From an uncultured Erysipelotrichaceae bacterium (GTDB taxonomy: Bacteria; Bacillota_I; Bacilli_A; RF39; UBA660): a DNA stretch of 64,000 bases. The notes beneath the pieces were generated by a model. The model saw nothing but the letters and a program-made list of their open reading frames with translations, was not told the DNA's origin and did no database searches. Position 1 is the stretch's first letter. Every line of letters starts with the position of its first letter. The stretch is taken from positions 2,333 through 66,332 of the forward strand of contig CACZFH010000003.1 in the NCBI GenBank assembly GCA_902780395.1, given 5' to 3'. Shown here in pieces: positions 4,999-30,361 of the stretch. Made by a program: the position numbers and the translations under genes.

Positions 4999-5004
4999 TA
5001 CATA

Positions 5005-5224
5005 CAGATGCAAAGAATCTGAGGAGTAATTATATCTTTTTTTTAGAGAGTTCCTGGTAGGTGAAAAGGAATAAAAAAGAATAATGAAGGTAGCAGAGGA
5101 GCATATTTTCTGAAATTAATAGTAGGAAAATCCGGATAAATCCGTTATCAAAAGAAGCTATCAATAGATAGAAATTAAGGTGGTACCACGAACAATTCGT
5201 CCTTTGGATGAATTGTTTTTTTTT
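5005..5224 (+). promoter_or_regulatory. T-box riboswitch leader (tRNA-sensing antiterminator) upstream of the HD-hydrolase/valS operon
   Basis: AG-bulge AGAGA (5045-5049) and a distal loop with GGTAGGTGAAA. S-turn elements AGTA / GAA flank a specifier loop (GAAGGTAG, 5086-5093). T-box sequence AATTAAGGTGGTACCACG (5173-5190). Terminator AACAATTC/GAATTGTT (5191-5217) plus a T-run. Confidence 0.85.
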
Positions 5225-5234
5225 AGGAGGACAT

Positions 5235-6008
5235 ATGGATATAGAACTAGCTAAACAAGAATTCACTAGCTTTGCTAATCTTTATCTTTCAAAAGAAGAT
5301 AAGAAAAGCAGTGACTATAAAAATTCACTTAGAAAATATAATCATTCTTTTCGAGTCATGAATTTGAGTGAAAAAATTGCTCAATCACTAGAATTACCCA
5401 AAGAAGAAATCGAATTAATGAAGTTATGTGGCTTATTACACGATATTGGTAGATTTGAACAAGGAATGAAATACCATATATTTGAAGATCAAAAAAGTAT
5501 AGATCACGGAGATTTAGGAGCAGAAATATTAAAAAAAGATAATTTAATTAATAAATTTGCCATGACAAATCAACAAGATATTATAAAAGTCGTCAAATAT
5601 CATAATAAATATATAATTCCTAAAACTTTACCTACTAAAACTAGATTTTATATAGATATAATTAGAGATGCTGATAAAATAGATATATTATATTCTCTAT
5701 CAACAGAAGAATTAATATATGAGAATGATAACAAAACTATTTCAGATGAAATATTTAAACAAATAAAAAAGAAAGAATTAGTTAATAAGATAAATATTCA
5801 ATCAAGTATAGATTGGGTAGTAGTAGATTTAGCTTTTGTTTTTGACCTAAAATTTAAAAAGTCTTTTGAGATTATGAAAGAAAAAAACTATCATAATAAA
5901 ATAATAAATATTTATTCTAAAAAGATTAAAAAAAAGGATGATTTAAAGAAATTAGAAGAAATAAGGATATTAATTAATAATTATATTGAGGAGATGTTAA
6001 CATGTTAG
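5235..6008 (+). CDS. HD-domain metal-dependent phosphohydrolase
   Basis: AGGAGG SD places the start at ATG 5235; the track start 5208 lies inside the terminator. HD signature H..R...LCGLLHDIGRFEQ. Stop overlaps the valS start. Confidence 0.6.
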   Translation: MDIELAKQEFTSFANLYLSKEDKKSSDYKNSLRKYNHSFRVMNLSEKIAQSLELPKEEIELMKLCGLLHDIGRFEQGMKYHIFEDQKSIDHGDLGAEILKKDNLINKFAMTNQQDIIKVVKYHNKYIIPKTLPTKTRFYIDIIRDADKIDILYSLSTEELIYENDNKTISDEIFKQIKKKELVNKINIQSSIDWVVVDLAFVFDLKFKKSFEIMKEKNYHNKIINIYSKKIKKKDDLKKLEEIRILINNYIEEMLTC

Positions 6009-23820: not shown

Positions 23821-24375
23821 ATGAATCATAAAATTAAGAAAAAATATGTATTAAAAAAATCTGTAAAAATAGCCTTAAGTAAATTATTAATTATTATAAT
23901 TATCTTTTTAATAGGAATGATTCTAACTAAGAACAATGATTATAATAGAAATATAATAAAAGAAAAATTATTTGAAAGAAATATTCCCTTTCAAAAGATA
24001 AAAGGAATCTATGAAAAGTATTTTGGAAATGTCTTATCTATCTCAAAAGAAATAAAGAAAACAGAACCAGTCTTCAAAGAAACCATTCAATATATCAAAA
24101 AAGAGCCAAAAGAAGATGGAATAAAATTACAAGTAGAAGATAATTACTTAGTTCCTTCTATAGAAAGCGGAATAATTATAAATATAAAGGAAAATTCTAT
24201 TATAATGGAACAAGTAGATGGGGTAGAAGTAACTTATAAGAATATTGAAAAGGGAGATTTCTCACTATATGATTATATTGAAAAAGGAGAAATAATAGGA
24301 AAAGTAATTAATGATGAATTATTTTTAACATTTCAAAAGAATGGAGAAATTATTAATTATCAAGACTATCTATAA
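23821..24375 (+). CDS. spoIVFA: SpoIVFA-like protein (membrane-anchored, degenerate LytM/M23 domain)
   Basis: N-terminal TM and a C-terminal M23-like tail (IEKGEIIGKV...LTFQKNGEIINY). Overlaps and precedes spoIVFB, as in Bacillus. Confidence 0.5.
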   Translation: MNHKIKKKYVLKKSVKIALSKLLIIIIIFLIGMILTKNNDYNRNIIKEKLFERNIPFQKIKGIYEKYFGNVLSISKEIKKTEPVFKETIQYIKKEPKEDGIKLQVEDNYLVPSIESGIIINIKENSIIMEQVDGVEVTYKNIEKGDFSLYDYIEKGEIIGKVINDELFLTFQKNGEIINYQDYL

Positions 24376-25105
24376 AATTCATGCTAGTGTTTACTTATTA
24401 GCTTTTTTTTCAATAATAACTGCCTCTTTTATAGAATTTATAATTATCATGTCTCTAATAATGATACATGAACTAGGACACTATACTTCAGCTAAGCTCT
24501 TAAAAGAAGAAGTAAAAAATATTATGATATATCCTTTTGGAGGAATAACTAAAATAAATATGGAGATAAATGAGTCATTTAAAAAGGAATTCATAATTCT
24601 TATCATGGGACCAATCTTTCAAATAATAGGGTGCCTTTTATTAATAGGAATATTCCCACCCAAAAAGGAAATGATAATAATATATCATAATGGTATTTTA
24701 TTATTCAATTTATTACCTATCTATCCACTAGATGGAGGAAAACTATTAAAATTAGGATTAGATTATCTATGTCCATATAAAAAAAGTTTTAAAAGAATTA
24801 TCATGATTAGCTATAGTGTAGTAATAATACTATTTATAACAAAAACAACTAATATAAATATAATTTATACAACAATCTTCCTATTATTCTTAATAAGAAA
24901 AGAACAAAAGAAAGAACAGATCTATTATGAAAAACTACTATTAGAAAAATATTTAACAAAACAAAAATACCAAAGAAAAACAATAATACATTCAGAAAAA
25001 GAATTTTATAAAAGAAGAAATCATTTAATTAAGACAAAACATAAATATCTATCAGAAAATGAATATCTGTGGAAAAAGTATCGAAATTTCATGAAAAGTT
25101 ATTGA
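24341..25105 (+). CDS. spoIVFB: Site-2 (M50) intramembrane metalloprotease SpoIVFB (pro-sigma-K processing)
   Basis: HELGH zinc motif in a TM helix (LIMIHELGHY), plus YPFGG and NLLPIYPLDGGKLL (the NxxPxxxLDG motif). Closely parallels B. subtilis SpoIVFB as recalled. Confidence 0.8.
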   Translation: MEKLLIIKTIYKIHASVYLLAFFSIITASFIEFIIIMSLIMIHELGHYTSAKLLKEEVKNIMIYPFGGITKINMEINESFKKEFIILIMGPIFQIIGCLLLIGIFPPKKEMIIIYHNGILLFNLLPIYPLDGGKLLKLGLDYLCPYKKSFKRIIMISYSVVIILFITKTTNINIIYTTIFLLFLIRKEQKKEQIYYEKLLLEKYLTKQKYQRKTIIHSEKEFYKRRNHLIKTKHKYLSENEYLWKKYRNFMKSY

Positions 25106-25274: not shown

Positions 25275-25348
25275 GCCGATATAGTTTAGTGGTAAAACAG
25301 ATCCTTGGTAAGGATCAGCGGTAAGTTCAATTCTTACTATCGGCACCA
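25275..25348 (+). tRNA. tRNA-Thr (anticodon GGT), CCA encoded
   Basis: Acceptor GCCGATA/TATCGGC, D stem GTTT/AAAC, anticodon stem GATCC/GGATC with loop TTGGTAA, T stem GTAAG/CTTAC. Confidence 0.9.
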
Positions 25349-25458
25349 GTGACGAATCTGTTCGAACTATTTGAACTTTAAATATAGAGAACTTGCATAA
25401 AATAAAAAAGAGGAACATTTAAAGTTGCAAGTGAATGTCGCCTCAATTAATTGAGTTG

Positions 25459-25494
25459 GACACTCTATCTAAGCAGATGAGTGTCTATTTTTTT
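25459..25494 (+). terminator. Hairpin plus T-run; candidate 3' end of a short plus-strand (antitoxin-like) RNA
   Basis: Stem GACACTC / GAGTGTC with a 13-nt loop, followed by TATTTTTTT. Overlaps the stop of the minus-strand small ORF. Confidence 0.45.
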
Positions 25495-25577
25495 ATGACT
25501 AATACCAATAAGGTAAGAAGTGATAAAATGATACAGATGTATCTTAGGAGTTTAATCACATAAACTCTTTTTTTCAT
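25485..25577 (-). CDS. 30-aa hydrophobic peptide MKKRVYVIKLLRYICIILSLLTLLVLVIKK, type I toxin-like
   Basis: Reverse-strand ORF absent from the track (too short). Basic N-terminus, single TM helix and KK C-terminus. Convergent hairpin/terminator and flanking inverted repeats. Confidence 0.35.
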   Translation of the reverse strand: MKKRVYVIKLLRYICIILSLLTLLVLVIKK

Positions 25578-26060
25578 CGATATCTACCCATTCCTTTTTC
25601 AAGACTGGAGGACGACACTCACCTTAAATGTTCCTAATAAAATTATGCCAAACATTTATTCGTGACTCAATATTTTTACTATATTTTTTCTATTATATAT
25701 AATAAACCATAGTATTTTGATATTAATGTCAAAATACCTAGGGGGTTAAATATTTTGTCAAAACTCTTTACACTAGTGGCTCAATTTTATTACTTTACTA
25801 TCTATTTAGAATGATTTATAACAAACAGCAATTTTAAGAAACAATGTGAAATAATAATGAAAGATTATTCATTGGCAGATCTAAAAAAATTAAAAGAGAA
25901 TATTGAAAAAATCACTTCACCAGAGTGTACTGACAACATAAGTGAAGAAAAAGGTCCAGTATTTGAAAAAAAATTAATAATTAAGGGCAAACCACTTGCT
26001 CCTTTTTGTTGAATAAATATCGTTTTATGCTATAATAAAAAATCAATAGGAGGTCTTATA

Positions 26061-26906
26061 ATGAATGAAAAGTGTTCAGAAATAAAACAAGAAATAGCAT
26101 TTTTAGAATTATTTGGATATAGTTATACAAAACAAAAAAACGATTACAGATGGATTATTGGGGATGAAAATCATAATGAAATTGGATCAATTCAACTTGA
26201 AAAAAGAAAAAATGAAGTAACTAAAGAAGATGAATACTTATTCCATACAATAATAGATAGTTCGTTAATCAGTTGTGATTTTTCAAGAAATATAGCTTCT
26301 GAAAATGATTATGGAAATTATATATTTAAAGTTAAAAGACAAGATGAAAAAGAGGATGAAGTAACTCTAAGATTAGGGAAATATTCAAGGCTCTATATAG
26401 ATAGTGAAGAATATGGACCTCTTCAATTTAATGTTTTCTATAAGGGAATACACTTAGATTTCTACAGTAAAACAGATAATCATCTATTCCATGAAATACT
26501 TACTTATTATAATGATCCAGAAAATCAAGAGTATTCATATGAAATAAGATATTGTGATAAAGATAATAATGCTAGTAATGAAAAAGATAATAGTATTATA
26601 ATTAGTGGATTATATACAAAAGGAATGAATAATGCGAATGAAATTCTATTAAAAGAAGAGGAAATAAGAGAAGGTAAAGTAGCTAGACATGAAGAAGAAA
26701 TAGTAAAGGGAACTATTGAAGAACTAGCTAAAAGACACGGTATGGGAATTAATAGTTTTAAACATTTCCAAAATCTAATTAATGATATAGTTCCTATGAA
26801 AAAAAGTCTTATAACTACTATGCTTTCGAAAGAGACCATAGAAGAGTTAAATCTATTGCCATTCTTTCCAAACCAAGAAAAACAAAAAAAGAAAATCTTA
26901 AAATAG
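26061..26906 (+). CDS. Hypothetical 281-aa cytoplasmic protein
   Basis: AGGAGG SD. No recognisable motif. Confidence 0.4.
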   Translation: MNEKCSEIKQEIAFLELFGYSYTKQKNDYRWIIGDENHNEIGSIQLEKRKNEVTKEDEYLFHTIIDSSLISCDFSRNIASENDYGNYIFKVKRQDEKEDEVTLRLGKYSRLYIDSEEYGPLQFNVFYKGIHLDFYSKTDNHLFHEILTYYNDPENQEYSYEIRYCDKDNNASNEKDNSIIISGLYTKGMNNANEILLKEEEIREGKVARHEEEIVKGTIEELAKRHGMGINSFKHFQNLINDIVPMKKSLITTMLSKETIEELNLLPFFPNQEKQKKKILK

Positions 26907-26946: not shown

Positions 26947-26975
26947 TTGTTTACAAACAGAAAATATGTTAAAAT
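26947..26975 (+). promoter_or_regulatory. Candidate promoter (extended -10) for the bacteriocin-transporter leader
   Basis: TTGTTT (26947-26952), 17-nt spacer ending TGt, TAAAAT (26970-26975). Confidence 0.45.
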
Positions 26976-26981
26976 GAAGTT

Positions 26982-27096
26982 GGGATAAATAGCATAGAAA
27001 ACGAAGTTTTTTCTAAAAGTCTCATCAATTATCACGCGTTTGGTTAGGCCATTAGTCATTTATCCCGAGAAGAGTGAAAAAACTCTTCTTTTTTTT
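26982..27096 (+). promoter_or_regulatory. Structured ~115-nt leader with an intrinsic terminator upstream of the C39-ABC transporter gene (unclassified cis-regulatory RNA or small RNA)
   Basis: Long-range helix GGGATAAAT (26982-26990) / ATTTATCCC (27058-27066) encloses smaller hairpins. Terminator GAAGAGT/ACTCTTC (27069-27088) plus T8. Confidence 0.4.
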
Positions 27097-27110
27097 GTCT
27101 CAAAAGAAAA

Positions 27111-29225
27111 ATGATTGCGAATAATATAATAGGAGGTGAGAGAAAAAGAGTGAAAGTAGTCCTACAGGATGGTATGAAAGATTGTGGGATATGTTGTCTT
27201 TTATCTATTATTCGATTTTATGGGGGAGAAGTATCGAAAGAGTATTTAAGAGAAGCAACACATACCACCAAAGAAGGAGTCTCTTTATATAATTTAATAG
27301 AATGTTCAGAAAAATTAGGTTTTGAAGCAACAGGAGTAACAGGAAATATAGAAGAAATAAATGTAAATAACTTACCATGTATTGCTCATTTTGTTGTGAA
27401 TAAAAACTATAAACATTTTGTAGTTCTATATCAAATTAATAAAAAGAAACAATTAATTACTATTATGGATCCAGCTAAAGGAAAAAAAGTAATATCCTTC
27501 TCAGAGTTTCGTTTATTGACAAGTTCTAATTATCTATTTTTAAGTCCTATCAAACCACTACCAATCATGAAAAAAAAGAATAGAATACTAAATCAAATAA
27601 GTTTACTATTAAAAGATAATAAAACTATGTGGCTTTCTATTCTCTTATTAACTATTGTGTATTTTATTCTCAATTTAATAGGAACATTTCATTTGAAATA
27701 TTTAATGGAATTTGCCATATCTTACCAAATATCAAATAATGTTTATTGGATAAGCTCTTTGCTTCTATGTTTTTATTTTTTAAAGAATATAAACTATTTC
27801 TTAAGAAATATAATATTAAATAAATGGACCTCAATCTTTGACTATGAAACAACATCTATGACTTATAAACAGATTCTTTTACTTCCATATTTATATTATA
27901 AAAATAGGACTACTGGAGAAGTAGTATCACGTTTCAAAGATTTAAATACCATTCGTTCCTTTATTAGTAGTTTTTTCTGTATCATTACAACAGACTGTAT
28001 AACTCTAATAATATTTATCTATGTTATGTTTATGATTCAAAAAAAAATAACATTTATCTTATTAATACTGATGAGTAGTATATTATTCATATCTATTTGG
28101 ATTAACATTAAAAAAAAAGAAAACATCAAAAAAATCGTATCTGGGCAAGATATCATTCACTCCTATATAATTAATGGAATAAGTAATGTAGACACTATGA
28201 AAGGGTCCCATTTAGAAAAAAGGATGATAGATAAGTTTAAGCTAAACTATAAATCTTTTATGGAAACCGTTTATCATTACTCATTAATAATAGAATTATA
28301 TCAGTTTATCAAAAATAATATTCAAGATATAATGATAACTATAATCTATGGAATAGGATCAATAGAAATTATCAAGGATAATTTAAGTATCAGTAATTTA
28401 ATTCTATACCAAACAGCATATTCTTATTTTAAAAATAGTTTTTCAAATCTCCTATCGTTAATAGAAGAGTATACTTCATTTAAAATTGCTTTAAATAGAG
28501 TAGAAGAAATATATTTGATTTCACATGAAAAATTTAAAAATAACTATTATTATTTGCCTTACCAATTAATAGGAGATATTGAAATAAAAAACTTAAATTA
28601 CAAAATAAACAATAAAGTACTTTTTCAAAATTTAAATGTAGTTATTAAACAAGGAGAAAAAGTCCTTTTGTGTGGAGCCAGTGGTTCTGGGAAAAGCACT
28701 TTACTAAAAATGCTTTTACGCTACATAGACATAGATTATGGTCATATTTCCATAGCAGGAATTGATATTAATCATTATCATTTAGAAAATATTCGCTCAT
28801 ATATTACCTACGTAACAGGAAATGAATATCTTTTTACTGATAATCTTCAGAATAACATCATGCTATATAAGGAAATACCAGAGGAGGAGTTTCAAACAGC
28901 TTGTAAGATTTGTTTAGTCGATGAATTAGTAAAAAACAAATTAACAAAGTATAACACCATAGTAGAAGAAAATGGTTTTAACTTTAGTAATGGAGAAAGA
29001 CAAAGAATTATTCTAGCTCGTAGTATTTTAAGAAATAGTAATATCTATATATTTGATGAATCGTTTTCGGGCATAGATATAAATAAAGAAAAGAAAATTT
29101 TAGAAAATATCTTTCAATATTTAAAAGGAAAAACAATTATCGTTATTTCTCATCGCTTTAACAATAAGAAATTATTTGATAGAATACTAAAATTAGATCA
29201 AGGAAACCTATATGAGAATCCGTAA
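27111..29225 (+). CDS. Bacteriocin-processing/export ABC transporter with an N-terminal C39 cysteine-peptidase domain
   Basis: C39 catalytic Cys context (DGMKDCGICCLLSI), a six-TM domain, Walker A GASGSGKST, signature FSNGERQR and Walker B IYIFDES. The start may be GTG 27150 (AGGAGGTG SD at 27131-27138). Confidence 0.85.
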   Translation: MIANNIIGGERKRVKVVLQDGMKDCGICCLLSIIRFYGGEVSKEYLREATHTTKEGVSLYNLIECSEKLGFEATGVTGNIEEINVNNLPCIAHFVVNKNYKHFVVLYQINKKKQLITIMDPAKGKKVISFSEFRLLTSSNYLFLSPIKPLPIMKKKNRILNQISLLLKDNKTMWLSILLLTIVYFILNLIGTFHLKYLMEFAISYQISNNVYWISSLLLCFYFLKNINYFLRNIILNKWTSIFDYETTSMTYKQILLLPYLYYKNRTTGEVVSRFKDLNTIRSFISSFFCIITTDCITLIIFIYVMFMIQKKITFILLILMSSILFISIWINIKKKENIKKIVSGQDIIHSYIINGISNVDTMKGSHLEKRMIDKFKLNYKSFMETVYHYSLIIELYQFIKNNIQDIMITIIYGIGSIEIIKDNLSISNLILYQTAYSYFKNSFSNLLSLIEEYTSFKIALNRVEEIYLISHEKFKNNYYYLPYQLIGDIEIKNLNYKINNKVLFQNLNVVIKQGEKVLLCGASGSGKSTLLKMLLRYIDIDYGHISIAGIDINHYHLENIRSYITYVTGNEYLFTDNLQNNIMLYKEIPEEEFQTACKICLVDELVKNKLTKYNTIVEENGFNFSNGERQRIILARSILRNSNIYIFDESFSGIDINKEKKILENIFQYLKGKTIIVISHRFNNKKLFDRILKLDQGNLYENP

Positions 29226-29616
29226 TTATGAAAAGAAAAATATAGTTCTTTATATCTCAGCTATATTGTTGATATTAGAAATATTATTATTTATATATTT
29301 GAAAGAAACAAAAGAATTTCAATATGAAAAAATAACAGGTTATATCATCAGTAAAAATGAAATATTAATAACACCAACAAAGAGGATAAGAAAAATGCTT
29401 TATAAAAATAAAAAAATCTACATAAAAGATCATTTATTATCCTATGAAATAAAAGAAGATAAAGGGGTTTTGCTAGAAAGTAATAATAAAAGGTATTACG
29501 AATTAATAATAAAAGCAAAAATACCATCGAATAATAATCAAATAATAGAAATCAGTATCAAGAGAGAGAAAAAAGATATCATAACAATTTTTAAATCGGT
29601 ATGGAAGGAGGAATAA
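29212..29616 (+). CDS. 134-aa membrane-anchored protein; possible miniaturised bacteriocin-export accessory (HlyD/ComB-like without the coiled-coil hairpin)
   Basis: Overlaps the transporter stop. N-terminal TM helix followed by a beta-rich sequence. Position matches accessory genes of class II bacteriocin loci. Confidence 0.3.
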   Translation: MRIRNYEKKNIVLYISAILLILEILLFIYLKETKEFQYEKITGYIISKNEILITPTKRIRKMLYKNKKIYIKDHLLSYEIKEDKGVLLESNNKRYYELIIKAKIPSNNNQIIEISIKREKKDIITIFKSVWKEE

Positions 29617-29765
29617 AAATAAAAGAAATAGATCAAGAAGATTTAGATAAAATAAAAGGAGGAGCAGTTGTTTCAATTTGGACTGGTATTGTGATAGCTG
29701 CTATTGTAGTATTTATTTCAGGGGTTATAGAAGGAATTACCAATCCAGAAAGGTGTCATGGATGA
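29601..29765 (+). CDS. Double-glycine-leader bacteriocin precursor A (54 aa): leader MEGGIKIKEIDQEDLDKIKGG, core AVVSIWTGIVIAAIVVFISGVIEGITNPERCHG
   Basis: Not in the ORF track. The leader matches the GG-leader consensus (E..DL..I.GG). Hydrophobic core with GxxxG/GxxxA motifs. Stop overlaps the start of peptide B (ATGA). The start is uncertain (ATG 29601 has no SD; a GGAGG at 29606-29610 precedes in-frame ATA codons). Confidence 0.6.
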   Translation: MEGGIKIKEIDQEDLDKIKGGAVVSIWTGIVIAAIVVFISGVIEGITNPERCHG

Positions 29766-29935
29766 GTGAATTAAAAGAAGAACAGCTAGGAGAAATTATG
29801 GGAGGCAATACCACTGTGAGTGGACCAATTATTAATGCTGTTGTTAATGTAATCAAGGTTATTAAAGATGCTGGTTACTCTCTAGGTTCCGGCATTCGAA
29901 GAATCAGTGAAGACAAATTATGCCCCTTAGAATAA
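29762..29935 (+). CDS. Double-glycine-leader bacteriocin precursor B (57 aa): leader MSELKEEQLGEIMGG, core NTTVSGPIINAVVNVIKVIKDAGYSLGSGIRRISEDKLCPLE
   Basis: Same frame as track ORF 29678-29935, but ATG 29762 yields a canonical 15-aa GG leader (L..EQL.EI.GG). Core is amphipathic and cationic with a GYSLG (GxxxG) motif. Confidence 0.65.
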   Translation: MSELKEEQLGEIMGGNTTVSGPIINAVVNVIKVIKDAGYSLGSGIRRISEDKLCPLE

Positions 29936-30078
29936 TCAAAAATAAGAAATTATTCATTGCGTTGGGGGTTATTATTTTAATCCCATTAATTCCAGTATTT
30001 ATCCATTTTTTCTTCCAATTAGGAGTGTATTTTGGAATTTTTATTAGAAAATTGTATGATTTTGTCGTTTTTTCGTAA
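29920..30078 (+). CDS. 52-aa hydrophobic protein (MPLRIIKNKKLFIALGVIILIPLIPVFIHFFFQLGVYFGIFIRKLYDFVVFS), candidate bacteriocin immunity protein
   Basis: Not in the ORF track. Overlaps the end of peptide B by 16 nt. Two predicted TM helices. Position typical for immunity genes. Confidence 0.4.
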   Translation: MPLRIIKNKKLFIALGVIILIPLIPVFIHFFFQLGVYFGIFIRKLYDFVVFS

Positions 30079-30157
30079 AAAAAAACATAAAATCTGTTGA
30101 AAAATGAATATTCTTTTGATATAATTCATTTTAGTTAAAGCGAAGGGAGGGAGAAAG

Positions 30158-30361
30158 ATGGCTACTAAAGTAACTGTTAGAGGAAATCTAGATCAAGCTC
30201 TAAGAAAATTTAAGCAAAAAGTGGCAAGAGATGGTGTCCCTTCTGAGTGGAAAAAAAGAGAAGCATACGATAAACCAGGCGTTAGAAGAAGAGCAGCTAA
30301 AAAAGAAGGAATTAAAAACTCACGAAAAAGAGATCGTGCTAATAGAAGTAAAGATTATTAA
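30158..30361 (+). CDS. rpsU: 30S ribosomal protein S21
   Basis: 67-aa basic protein with V.V.....L..AL..FK......G...E.....Y.KP and an Arg/Lys-rich tail. GGGAGGG SD. Confidence 0.9.
   Translation: MATKVTVRGNLDQALRKFKQKVARDGVPSEWKKREAYDKPGVRRRAAKKEGIKNSRKRDRANRSKDY

Follow-up and report, generated by a model that had tools for sequence, protein, structure and literature searches.

Class IIb bacteriocin systems are defined by two adjacent genes for peptides with double-glycine (GG) leaders of 15-30 residues, an immunity protein, an ATP-binding cassette (ABC) exporter with a C39 peptidase domain and an accessory protein, and their operons are usually controlled by a peptide pheromone together with a kinase and a regulator (PMC2850506). 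Immunity proteins of 42-55 aa are known in this class (PMC6957408). Here an operon resembling these systems is described in a 64,000-nt stretch of DNA from an uncultured Erysipelotrichaceae bacterium (GenBank assembly GCA_902780395.1, contig CACZFH010000003.1, positions 2,333 to 66,332), which as a whole is called the window below. Five genes, for a C39-ABC exporter, an accessory protein, the GG-leader prepeptides PepA and PepB and a small membrane peptide (orfC), are arranged in this order, and on balance we slightly favour reading them as a self-contained, chromosomally fixed, class IIb-like two-peptide bacteriocin system with its own exporter, accessory protein and immunity candidate.

The GG-leader two-peptide system with a peptidase-containing ABC exporter (PCAT) is already known as a kind, and single members of the families found here have been labelled 'bacteriocin' by NCBI or JGI. 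What is new is the pepB family, the conserved Cys that each of the two peptides carries, a conserved five-gene module whose accessory protein is tiny, the constant position of this module next to rpsU throughout a deep lineage of uncultured gut Bacilli, and orfC as a gene left uncalled in public annotation there. A candidate cis-regulatory RNA before the operon is new as well.

The five-gene operon and its GG-leader peptides

The operon is located on the + strand between tRNA-Thr (25275-25348) and rpsU, and consecutive genes overlap throughout. The PCAT gene (27150-29225) encodes 691 aa from GTG 27150, or 704 aa from ATG 27111. It is followed by the gene for a 134-aa accessory membrane protein (29212-29616; 14-nt overlap with the exporter stop), pepA (29601-29765; 16-nt overlap with the 134-aa open reading frame (ORF); mature part 29664-29762), pepB (29762-29935; mature part 29807-29932), whose ATG overlaps the pepA stop by 4 nt (ATGA), and orfC (29920-30078; 52 aa, 16-nt overlap with pepB). 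An earlier, sequence-only reading had described the exporter and then three small ORFs; on re-reading the sequence, pepA, pepB and orfC were present with the positions and sequences it gave, but the 134-aa gene between exporter and pepA had gone unmentioned. It had also noted that two of the small genes were missing from its ORF list and one was mis-started, and the cause was found in the 60-aa cut-off of that mechanical list, by which pepA and orfC were lost and pepB appeared only as an 85-aa ORF started at TTG (29678-29935). That the genes were overlooked is true for orfC, which public callers leave uncalled at all loci of this lineage while its counterpart in distant lineages is called, but pepA and pepB are already called by public gene callers on near-identical rumen contigs.

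A genome scan with one genome per GTDB species yielded 13 metagenome-assembled genomes (MAGs) with the module, mostly from ruminants and one from a mouse-gut genome catalogue, which carry the labels Erysipelotrichaceae, Bacillales, Bacilli or Mollicutes. Every locus was found via pepB or the leader, and sister genomes lacking the module lie outside this sampling. By tblastn, the exporter, 134-aa, pepA, pepB and orfC genes occurred in the same order in the 13 MAGs, with identities to the window of 61-82% for the exporter, 32-52% for the accessory protein, 54-80% for PepA, 54-82% for PepB and 35-60% for the orfC product. The three small genes are each kept as same-register ORFs in up to 13 species, and a chance-ORF reading of them was ruled out by these conservation data. 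The ratio of nonsynonymous to synonymous change (pN/pS) was 0.64 for the leader and 0.33 for the core of pepA, 0.58 and 0.26 for those of pepB, and 0.54 for orfC; since pS is saturated, the true values would be lower. All genes of the module are under purifying selection. In addition, four distant PepB relatives of about 35-40% identity, one of them in a common human-gut organism, carry a corresponding set, with an exporter of 692-698 aa, an accessory protein of 138-151 aa and A-like, B-like and C-like peptides of 44-47, 52-56 and 56-59 aa.

The exporter matched Peptidase_C39 (1.2e-31), ABC_membrane and ABC_tran, all above the Pfam cut-offs, which bears out its description as a C39-peptidase ABC exporter. 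The catalytic Gln/Cys/His/Asp of the C39 domain is intact in all 11 exporter orthologues. It shows the architecture of TIGR01193 (bacteriocin_ABC, a peptide cleavage/export ABC transporter), with the C39 domain, six transmembrane (TM) segments and the nucleotide-binding domain, and scored 345 bits on that model, below the cut-off of 523.85, so that it would be a divergent PCAT. ATG 27111, from which the sequence-only reading and some gene callers start the gene, sits upstream of the Shine-Dalgarno (SD) sequence TAGGAGGTGA (27130-27139); this strong SD precedes GTG 27150, and the homologous GTG is precisely where the frame opens in five other species. GTG 27150 is most likely the true start. 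The segment GAATAATAnAnTAGGAGGTGA ahead of the exporter start (window 27113-27139; L032 3310-3336) is kept even in distant lineages without the leader RNA described below, a conservation beyond what an SD would need.

The accessory protein is kept in every module-bearing lineage (134-151 aa). Its AlphaFold2 (AF2) model (pLDDT 73) gives an N-terminal TM helix and a small beta-rich outer domain. It had no family match in Pfam, NCBIfam or PADLOC, and the distant homologues of it and of the orfC product had no Pfam match. A faint match to the Mycoplasma MG406 family was obtained (E 0.02). When the model was compared with the PDB by Foldseek, no significant match was returned (MexA, E 0.36), and the top matches, a poxvirus polymerase and a HerA barrel with TM-scores of about 0.4, were set aside as not meaningful. 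The model neither shows nor excludes a 'mini-HlyD' identity.

PepA is composed of the leader MEGGIKIKEIDQEDLDKIKGG and a predicted mature, hydrophobic peptide of 33 aa, AVVSIWTGIVIAAIVVFISGVIEGITNPERCHG (AVVS...CHG), which would be an almost fully hydrophobic, TM-like helix. PepB is composed of the leader MSELKEEQLGEIMGG and a predicted mature peptide of 42 aa, NTTVSGPIINAVVNVIKVIKDAGYSLGSGIRRISEDKLCPLE (NTTV...CPLE). A Gly-Gly pair closes each leader, and positions -4, -7, -12 and -15 are hydrophobic in both, as read from the sequence; that of PepB has 15 aa and that of PepA 21 (or 15). The start of pepA is ambiguous. In many homologues an ATG gives a 15-aa leader, and the homologous codon in the window is ATA (29619), standing after GGAAGGAGGA. 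From the in-frame ATG 29601 the leader has 21 aa; this codon lacks an SD of its own, and a start there would depend on translational coupling.

In the PepA family alignment, the GG, F38, G41 and G45 are invariant and C52 is nearly so, and 38 close clusters share the motif F[IL][SA]G[VIL]IEGITNPERC. The window PepA stayed below the cut-offs of three bacteriocin models, with 24.6 bits on PF10439 (Bacteriocin_IIc; gathering cut-off 27.1), 16.8 on NF038034 (lactococcin G-beta/enterocin 1071B; 37) and 14.6 on TIGR03949 (lactobin A/cerein 7B; 21.5). Among its relatives the signal is stronger: at E < 0.01, PF10439 is matched by 31 of 34, the lactococcin G-beta/enterocin 1071B model by 20 and TIGR03949 by 11. 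Two relatives carry a precomputed PF10439 call, one homologue is labelled 'lactobin A/cerein 7B family class IIb bacteriocin' by JGI, and a distant PepA-like peptide matches PF11632 (E 1e-3). The best plasmid match, a weak one, was a gene of an Enterococcus raffinosus megaplasmid which PGAP labels lactococcin G-beta/enterocin 1071B family bacteriocin. By hhalign, the PepA profile aligned with this peptide over 44 columns (probability 93.6%, E 2.2e-7), spanning the leader and the core W.GI..AAI.F..G...[DE]G. These sub-threshold matches indicate that PepA is a remote relative of the class IIb beta peptide (lactococcin G-beta/enterocin 1071B), by homology and not by membership of the family. On the megaplasmid (L058; NZ_CP081847.1, 431343-439501) the G-beta gene lies beside a second GG-type peptide and also adjoins genes for a PAP2 phosphatase, an Rgg regulator and a split C39/ABC exporter. 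UppP, an undecaprenyl-pyrophosphate phosphatase, is reported to be the receptor for peptides of the lactococcin G type, so the PAP2 phosphatase could be an immunity bypass there.

For PepB, a word-indexed search gave 173 clusters at 90% identity, almost all of 57 aa, in which the leader varies, the GG is invariant and the core is strongly conserved (GPIINA.VNVI...KDAGYSLGSGIRRISE..LCPL). An exhaustive HMMER profile search gave 203 clusters at 50% identity (E <= 1e-3), nearly all of 52-58 aa, with the consensus GG..ISGTLINA...I..L.D.GRSLGSAIRRI....C. PepB would thus found a large unnamed family; one homologue is named 'bacteriocin' by NCBI. It had no match to PF10439 and is unrelated to the class IIb alpha peptides. 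The proposed search of hidden Markov models of GG-leader families therefore gave a divided answer, as PepA reached bacteriocin models remotely, below threshold, but PepB at leader level only. The GxxxG motif that the sequence-only reading saw in both cores is invariant across species (G41xxxG45 in PepA, G38xxxG42xG44 in PepB). The description of the PepB core as cationic was not upheld, its mature net charge being +1 only; some distant relatives are more basic. Natural fusions occur among metagenome proteins (P0239, P0230 and P0298), comprising A-like and B-like peptides in one 102-aa ORF, a B N-terminus joined to an orfC-like part, and an A/B chimera, and they are variants of the module that arose in other organisms by read-through or deletion. 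The AF2 model of the A-B fusion P0239 (pLDDT 57, pTM 0.30) shows both cores as helical and no more, and it was left unused as evidence for core packing for these low scores.

Each mature peptide was said to have one Cys near its C-terminus, and in this lineage that Cys is indeed invariant in PepB and nearly so in PepA. It is kept in distant lineages (A-like ...RP..C.., B-like ...C(PL)). Among 130 full-length representatives of the PepB family, none lacks a Cys, 128 have one in the last six residues and 107 have exactly one. The Arg-Cys codons of pepA (AGG TGT) form the SD of pepB, and the ATG of orfC takes its A from the end of a Leu codon and its TG from the Cys codon of pepB, so both overlaps add constraint at the nucleotide level; the Cys persists at loci without these overlaps (L036, L032), hence the constraint would act on the protein. 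An A-B disulfide is possible, with other thiol chemistry as the alternative. We know of no characterised class IIb peptides with conserved cores and one conserved Cys each. Literature searches on GG peptides in Erysipelotrichia, disulfide-linked two-peptide bacteriocins and Mbov_0121 returned nothing directly relevant.

orfC is found in the same overlapping register in 12 of the 13 species, with the motif F.LG.Y.G.FLRNLYFF, and also in the distant lineages L032, L038 and L039. It had been described as a two-TM peptide. A 52-aa membrane peptide with one clear TM segment is seen, but the second segment is doubtful, being a charged, aromatic, amphipathic C-terminal tail. PADLOC gave no match. Conserved, coupled to pepB, of membrane type and of a size class known for class IIb immunity proteins, orfC is by analogy an immunity candidate.

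Promoter and structured leader RNA

The putative operon promoter (26947-26975, + strand) is made up of a -35-like TTGTTT (26947-26952), a 17-nt spacer and the extended -10 TGtTAAAAT (26967-26975). Every species that has the leader shows an ATTGTTT element and a TGnTAnAAT box at an equal distance upstream of it, and transcription would start from this promoter. Fold and covariation define a structured 5' leader RNA with a three-way junction (26981-27066, + strand), and directly after its helix P1 comes an intrinsic terminator with a 9-bp stem and U8 (27067-27098, + strand; detected at 27067-27090). Together they make a promoter-proximal unit of about 115 nt (26981-27098). P1 is formed by GGGAUAAAU/AUUUAUCCC, the hairpin P2 is variable, and the loop of the P3 hairpin contains the invariant UUAUCACGCG (27029-27038). 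The window leader folds at -31.7 kcal/mol, with z = -4.5 against shuffled sequences. The sequence-only reading had found no regulatory genes adjacent to the cluster, which holds for proteins but misses this conserved, structured leader with a terminator between promoter and exporter.

In the alignment of upstream regions, promoter, transcribed leader and pre-exporter terminator are conserved in 9 of 11 species, and a metagenome pattern scan added 13 true leader loci, giving 21 distinct sequences. Folded singly, nearly all 21 take the same architecture, with P2 or P3 differing in L030, L055 and L056. Covariation was tested on an alignment of 23 sequences by a covariance model (CM; alignment A7), and under this fit to the model, which favours the model, 92% of cells are paired (46-69% with the partners slid), 13 pairs are changed on both sides (5.7 +/- 1.6 in shuffles, reached in 0 of 500; 3-8 slid) and the covariation score is 0.27 (0.06-0.12 slid). 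Helix 4, the terminator, is 96% paired in A7. The independent single-sequence folds and the G-U substitutions (sense strand only) also argue for the leader structure. A first RNAalifold/CM model, in which the inner AUCA of the conserved loop was paired, was rejected; the change of AUCA/UGGU to AUCG/CGAU places the true P3 strand at the outer AUC[AG], and a new model was built on this basis.

No Rfam 15 family matched the leader at gathering scores, and a permissive search gave only chance-level matches (E >= 0.76). The leader model finds one match per locus, always upstream of the exporter, with L049 as the exception. There the end of a 153-aa ORF, 3 kb upstream from the real leader, holds a second, degenerate leader-like match (2342-2450; loop AUUGUGACGCUU; E 1.8e-5); as this sequence belonged to the seed alignment, the match may reflect a relic or chance. 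L019, L025 and the distant lineages lack the leader and keep only the terminator and GAATAATAnAnTAGGAGGTGA, and a terminator occurs in all species, even where the junction is missing.

With no space left for a further promoter ahead of the exporter, the operon can be transcribed only through the terminator; the possibility that it belongs to an upstream gene was ruled out on the same ground and by the conserved promoter upstream of it. A candidate antiterminator could form from the 3' strand of P2 and the 5' arm of the terminator (-3 to -6.6 kcal/mol, mean z -1.2 against shuffles). This pairing is weakly supported: its z is negative in 21 of 21 sequences, but the sequences are related. Leader and terminator are taken as a candidate new attenuator or riboswitch. 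To our knowledge, no class II bacteriocin-type operon has been described as being under riboswitch-like control, and a literature search on riboswitches with bacteriocin exporters gave nothing directly relevant.

Chromosomal position and possible roles of the peptides

Compared with the class IIb definition, the module has two adjacent GG-leader genes in one operon, a C39-ABC exporter of the active type and GxxxG in both peptides, and counterparts or candidates for the five functional parts of such a system sit in a single operon, as for lactococcin G. The class IIb interpretation of the sequence-only reading is supported by this architecture, the GxxxG motifs and the remote homology of PepA, but it is weakened by the failure to reach any curated model and by a PepB that resembles named families in its leader only. 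Under this interpretation, transcription would start at the extended -10 promoter and meet the three-way junction and the terminator, which would act as an attenuator. Read-through would give a single mRNA spanning all five genes, from the exporter to orfC, with translation coupled via the overlapping stops and starts. The C39 domain would cut both prepeptides after Gly-Gly, and the 33-aa hydrophobic and 42-aa amphipathic peptides would be exported. By analogy with lactococcin G/enterocin 1071, they could pair via GxxxG, insert into the membrane as a helix-helix unit and so permeabilise related cells, the 52-aa orfC product would protect the producer, and the one Cys near each C-terminus may join the two peptides or hold them in position. 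From the leaders and the peptidase, export and cleavage can be proposed with much more certainty than killing; that the peptides kill and act in synergy, that orfC gives immunity and what the cysteines do is proposed by analogy only.

Several results weigh against a bacteriocin. No curated bacteriocin model in Pfam or NCBIfam was reached at its cut-off by PepA or PepB, PepB has only leader-level similarity to any named family, and neither the PepA nor the PepB profile matched any sequence in the PDB. The mature peptides lack the cationic character of class IIb peptides (net charge -1 for PepA and +1 for PepB), and in family and fold searches the accessory protein was not of the LcnD/HlyD type expected. 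An extracellular disulfide would be doubtful, since rumen and gut habitats are presumably strongly reducing. In a sheep-duodenum MAG (L023, 4090-4216), orfC is reduced to a 17-codon remnant beside intact pepA, pepB, exporter and accessory genes, which is awkward for orfC as the sole immunity gene unless it is an assembly error. The mature cores of both peptides are more conserved than their leaders, a constraint less suited to an arms-race weapon than to a conserved role in physiology. The position of the module points the same way. It lies directly upstream of rpsU-yqeY in all 13 species, usually with yabP/yqfC-yqfD following, and again in three of the four distant lineages, whose upstream neighbours differ (gyrA/parC-ylbD-ylbE-rsmD and recX-prsA-rsmD, among others). 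Exporter identity (60-82%) correlates with YqeY identity (Mantel r 0.53, p 2e-4), as expected of co-inheritance. The module would thus be vertically inherited and fixed at one chromosomal position across a deep lineage, which is not usual among bacteriocins and makes a non-antagonistic role conceivable.

The two peptides could accordingly form a pair with a conserved physiological role, directed at the producer itself or at its kin, for example as a membrane or envelope component or a cell-cell cue, with a housekeeping-like PCAT and co-expression with rpsU, their bacteriocin-like form reflecting common ancestry only. Besides the fixed site and the near-zero net charge, this would fit the absence of a detected terminator between orfC and the rpsU promoter (TTGAAA-17-TGnTATAAT at 30097-30125, 11/12 match; rpsU 30158-30361, the whole 30097-30361 on the + strand), the core motifs and Cys that are near invariant across the 203 clusters, and the lack of pepB relatives on 72,556 plasmids. 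The orphan C39-ABC exporters of related Mollicutes, present even in JCVI-syn3A and with substrates or bacteriocins unknown, offer a precedent (PMC6609329). Yet PepA is homologous to a bacteriocin family, and a small immunity-like membrane gene is translationally coupled to pepB. The module is also not indispensable, as pepA is split in L029 and orfC truncated in L023, and such dispensability in some lineages is what would be expected of an accessory weapon. A 'core genome' status is presumptive, all loci having been found via pepB, and in the fourth distant lineage (L035/L036) it stands elsewhere, upstream of relA, and without orfC. We consider the physiological pair unlikely, while it is the alternative that deserves most attention.

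That pepA and/or pepB encode GG quorum-sensing pheromones of the ComC, BlpC or plantaricin A type is very improbable. Such peptides are likewise GG-leader peptides exported by a PCAT, and weak, leader-driven, sub-threshold matches to the ComC and EntF induction-factor models were seen (PF03047, 14.2 against a cut-off of 20.4). However, no histidine kinase or response regulator stands beside the module at any locus read, and the mature peptides have 33 and 42 aa, one of them an almost fully hydrophobic TM-like helix, compared with 17-26 aa for GG-leader pheromones; two conserved partner peptides with a coupled membrane peptide would better suit an effector/immunity set. It is scarcely credible, too, that they are precursors of a modified RiPP (ribosomally made peptide with post-translational modification), with the Cys serving to form a thioether or another cross-link. 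The near-invariant single Cys close to each C-terminus and one weak match to a model of radical-SAM-modified GG peptides among the PepB homologues are in its favour, but no radical-SAM, lanthipeptide, cyclodehydratase or other modification gene is found in or beside the module in any lineage, and the only protein that could serve, the 134-aa one, looks like a TM helix with a small beta domain.

A more far-reaching idea, which we regard as rather improbable, is that the module is an ancient, vertically inherited peptide export system of the low-GC gut Bacilli/Erysipelotrichia-Mollicutes stem, whose thiol peptides are physiological or kin-directed and tied to rpsU, and whose leader is a metabolite-responsive riboswitch of a new class. 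If true, it would point to the missing substrates of orphan C39-ABC exporters, even in minimal Mollicutes genomes. If the peptides kill, as under the favoured class IIb-like reading, they would represent a large uncharacterised two-peptide bacteriocin family (203 clusters at 50% identity) of rumen and human-gut uncultured Bacilli. If they do not, a bacteriocin-type export machine would be kept for a conserved cellular purpose, which bears on the C39-ABC exporters of Mollicutes and minimal cells. Whichever function holds, the operon is headed by a structured RNA and a terminator that match no known family.

Some observations were made on the surroundings of the module. In the goat-jejunum MAG L029 (2027-3731), an inserted element truncates pepA to its last 12 codons; its last gene encodes a 560-aa large serine recombinase, and the conserved peptide gene seems to serve as integration site. 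The region from tRNA-Thr to the promoter (window 25350-26906) varies between strains, with genes for 51 and 281 aa here and genes for 221, 232, 98, 99 and 288/294 aa instead in near-identical rumen strains. These variable genes had no Pfam, NCBIfam or PADLOC match, and the region is probably an integration hot spot beside tRNA genes. Farther upstream, a T-box leader (RF00230, 141.8 bits) was found at 5004-5207 before the ORF at 5208-6008, and a SpoIVFA-like (M23, faint) and SpoIVFB-like (M50) gene pair at 23821-25105 after mreC/mreD. From this pair and the yabP/yqfC-yqfD genes downstream of rpsU-yqeY, it follows that this very low-GC organism (27%) keeps sporulation genes.

Comparison with described systems

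The closest described systems are lactococcin G and enterocin 1071 (NF038034/PF11632), with which the module shares two neighbouring GG-leader genes, the GxxxG motifs and an operon that also contains exporter, accessory and immunity-sized genes. It differs from them in that the beta-like gene comes first, the peptides are non-cationic, a conserved Cys is found near the C-terminus of each, the accessory protein is an unclassified one of 134 aa and PepB is unrelated to the alpha peptides. In addition, the locus is chromosomal, position-fixed and kept through a deep lineage, not strain-variable or plasmid-borne. Lactobin A/cerein 7B (TIGR03949) and PF10439 peptides are similar in having a GG leader followed by a Gly-rich hydrophobic core, but the window PepA remains below both cut-offs and much of its score comes from the leader.

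CibAB/CibC of Streptococcus pneumoniae is a species-wide, chromosomal two-peptide GG-leader fratricide pair, with a small membrane immunity protein, and it is used against kin, not in an arms race that diversifies. It provides a conceptual precedent for a fixed chromosomal two-peptide system, the likeness being in the mode of working. Cib is under the competence regulon and not an RNA leader, and it is conserved in one species, whereas the present module is conserved in many species or genera. As to control, the leader is like transcription-attenuating riboswitches and leader RNAs in being promoter-proximal, with three helices at a junction, a conserved loop and a terminator after P1; it is unlike them in having no Rfam match and in being confined to one sub-lineage of the module hosts. 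Finally, the exporter resembles the orphan C39-ABC exporters of Mollicutes (Mbov_0121 family, NF045998; JCVI-syn3A 0401) with 306 bits (E 3.7e-91), a score below the cut-off of 500 and lower than that on bacteriocin_ABC (345), and in contrast to those orphans its GG-leader substrates are obvious.

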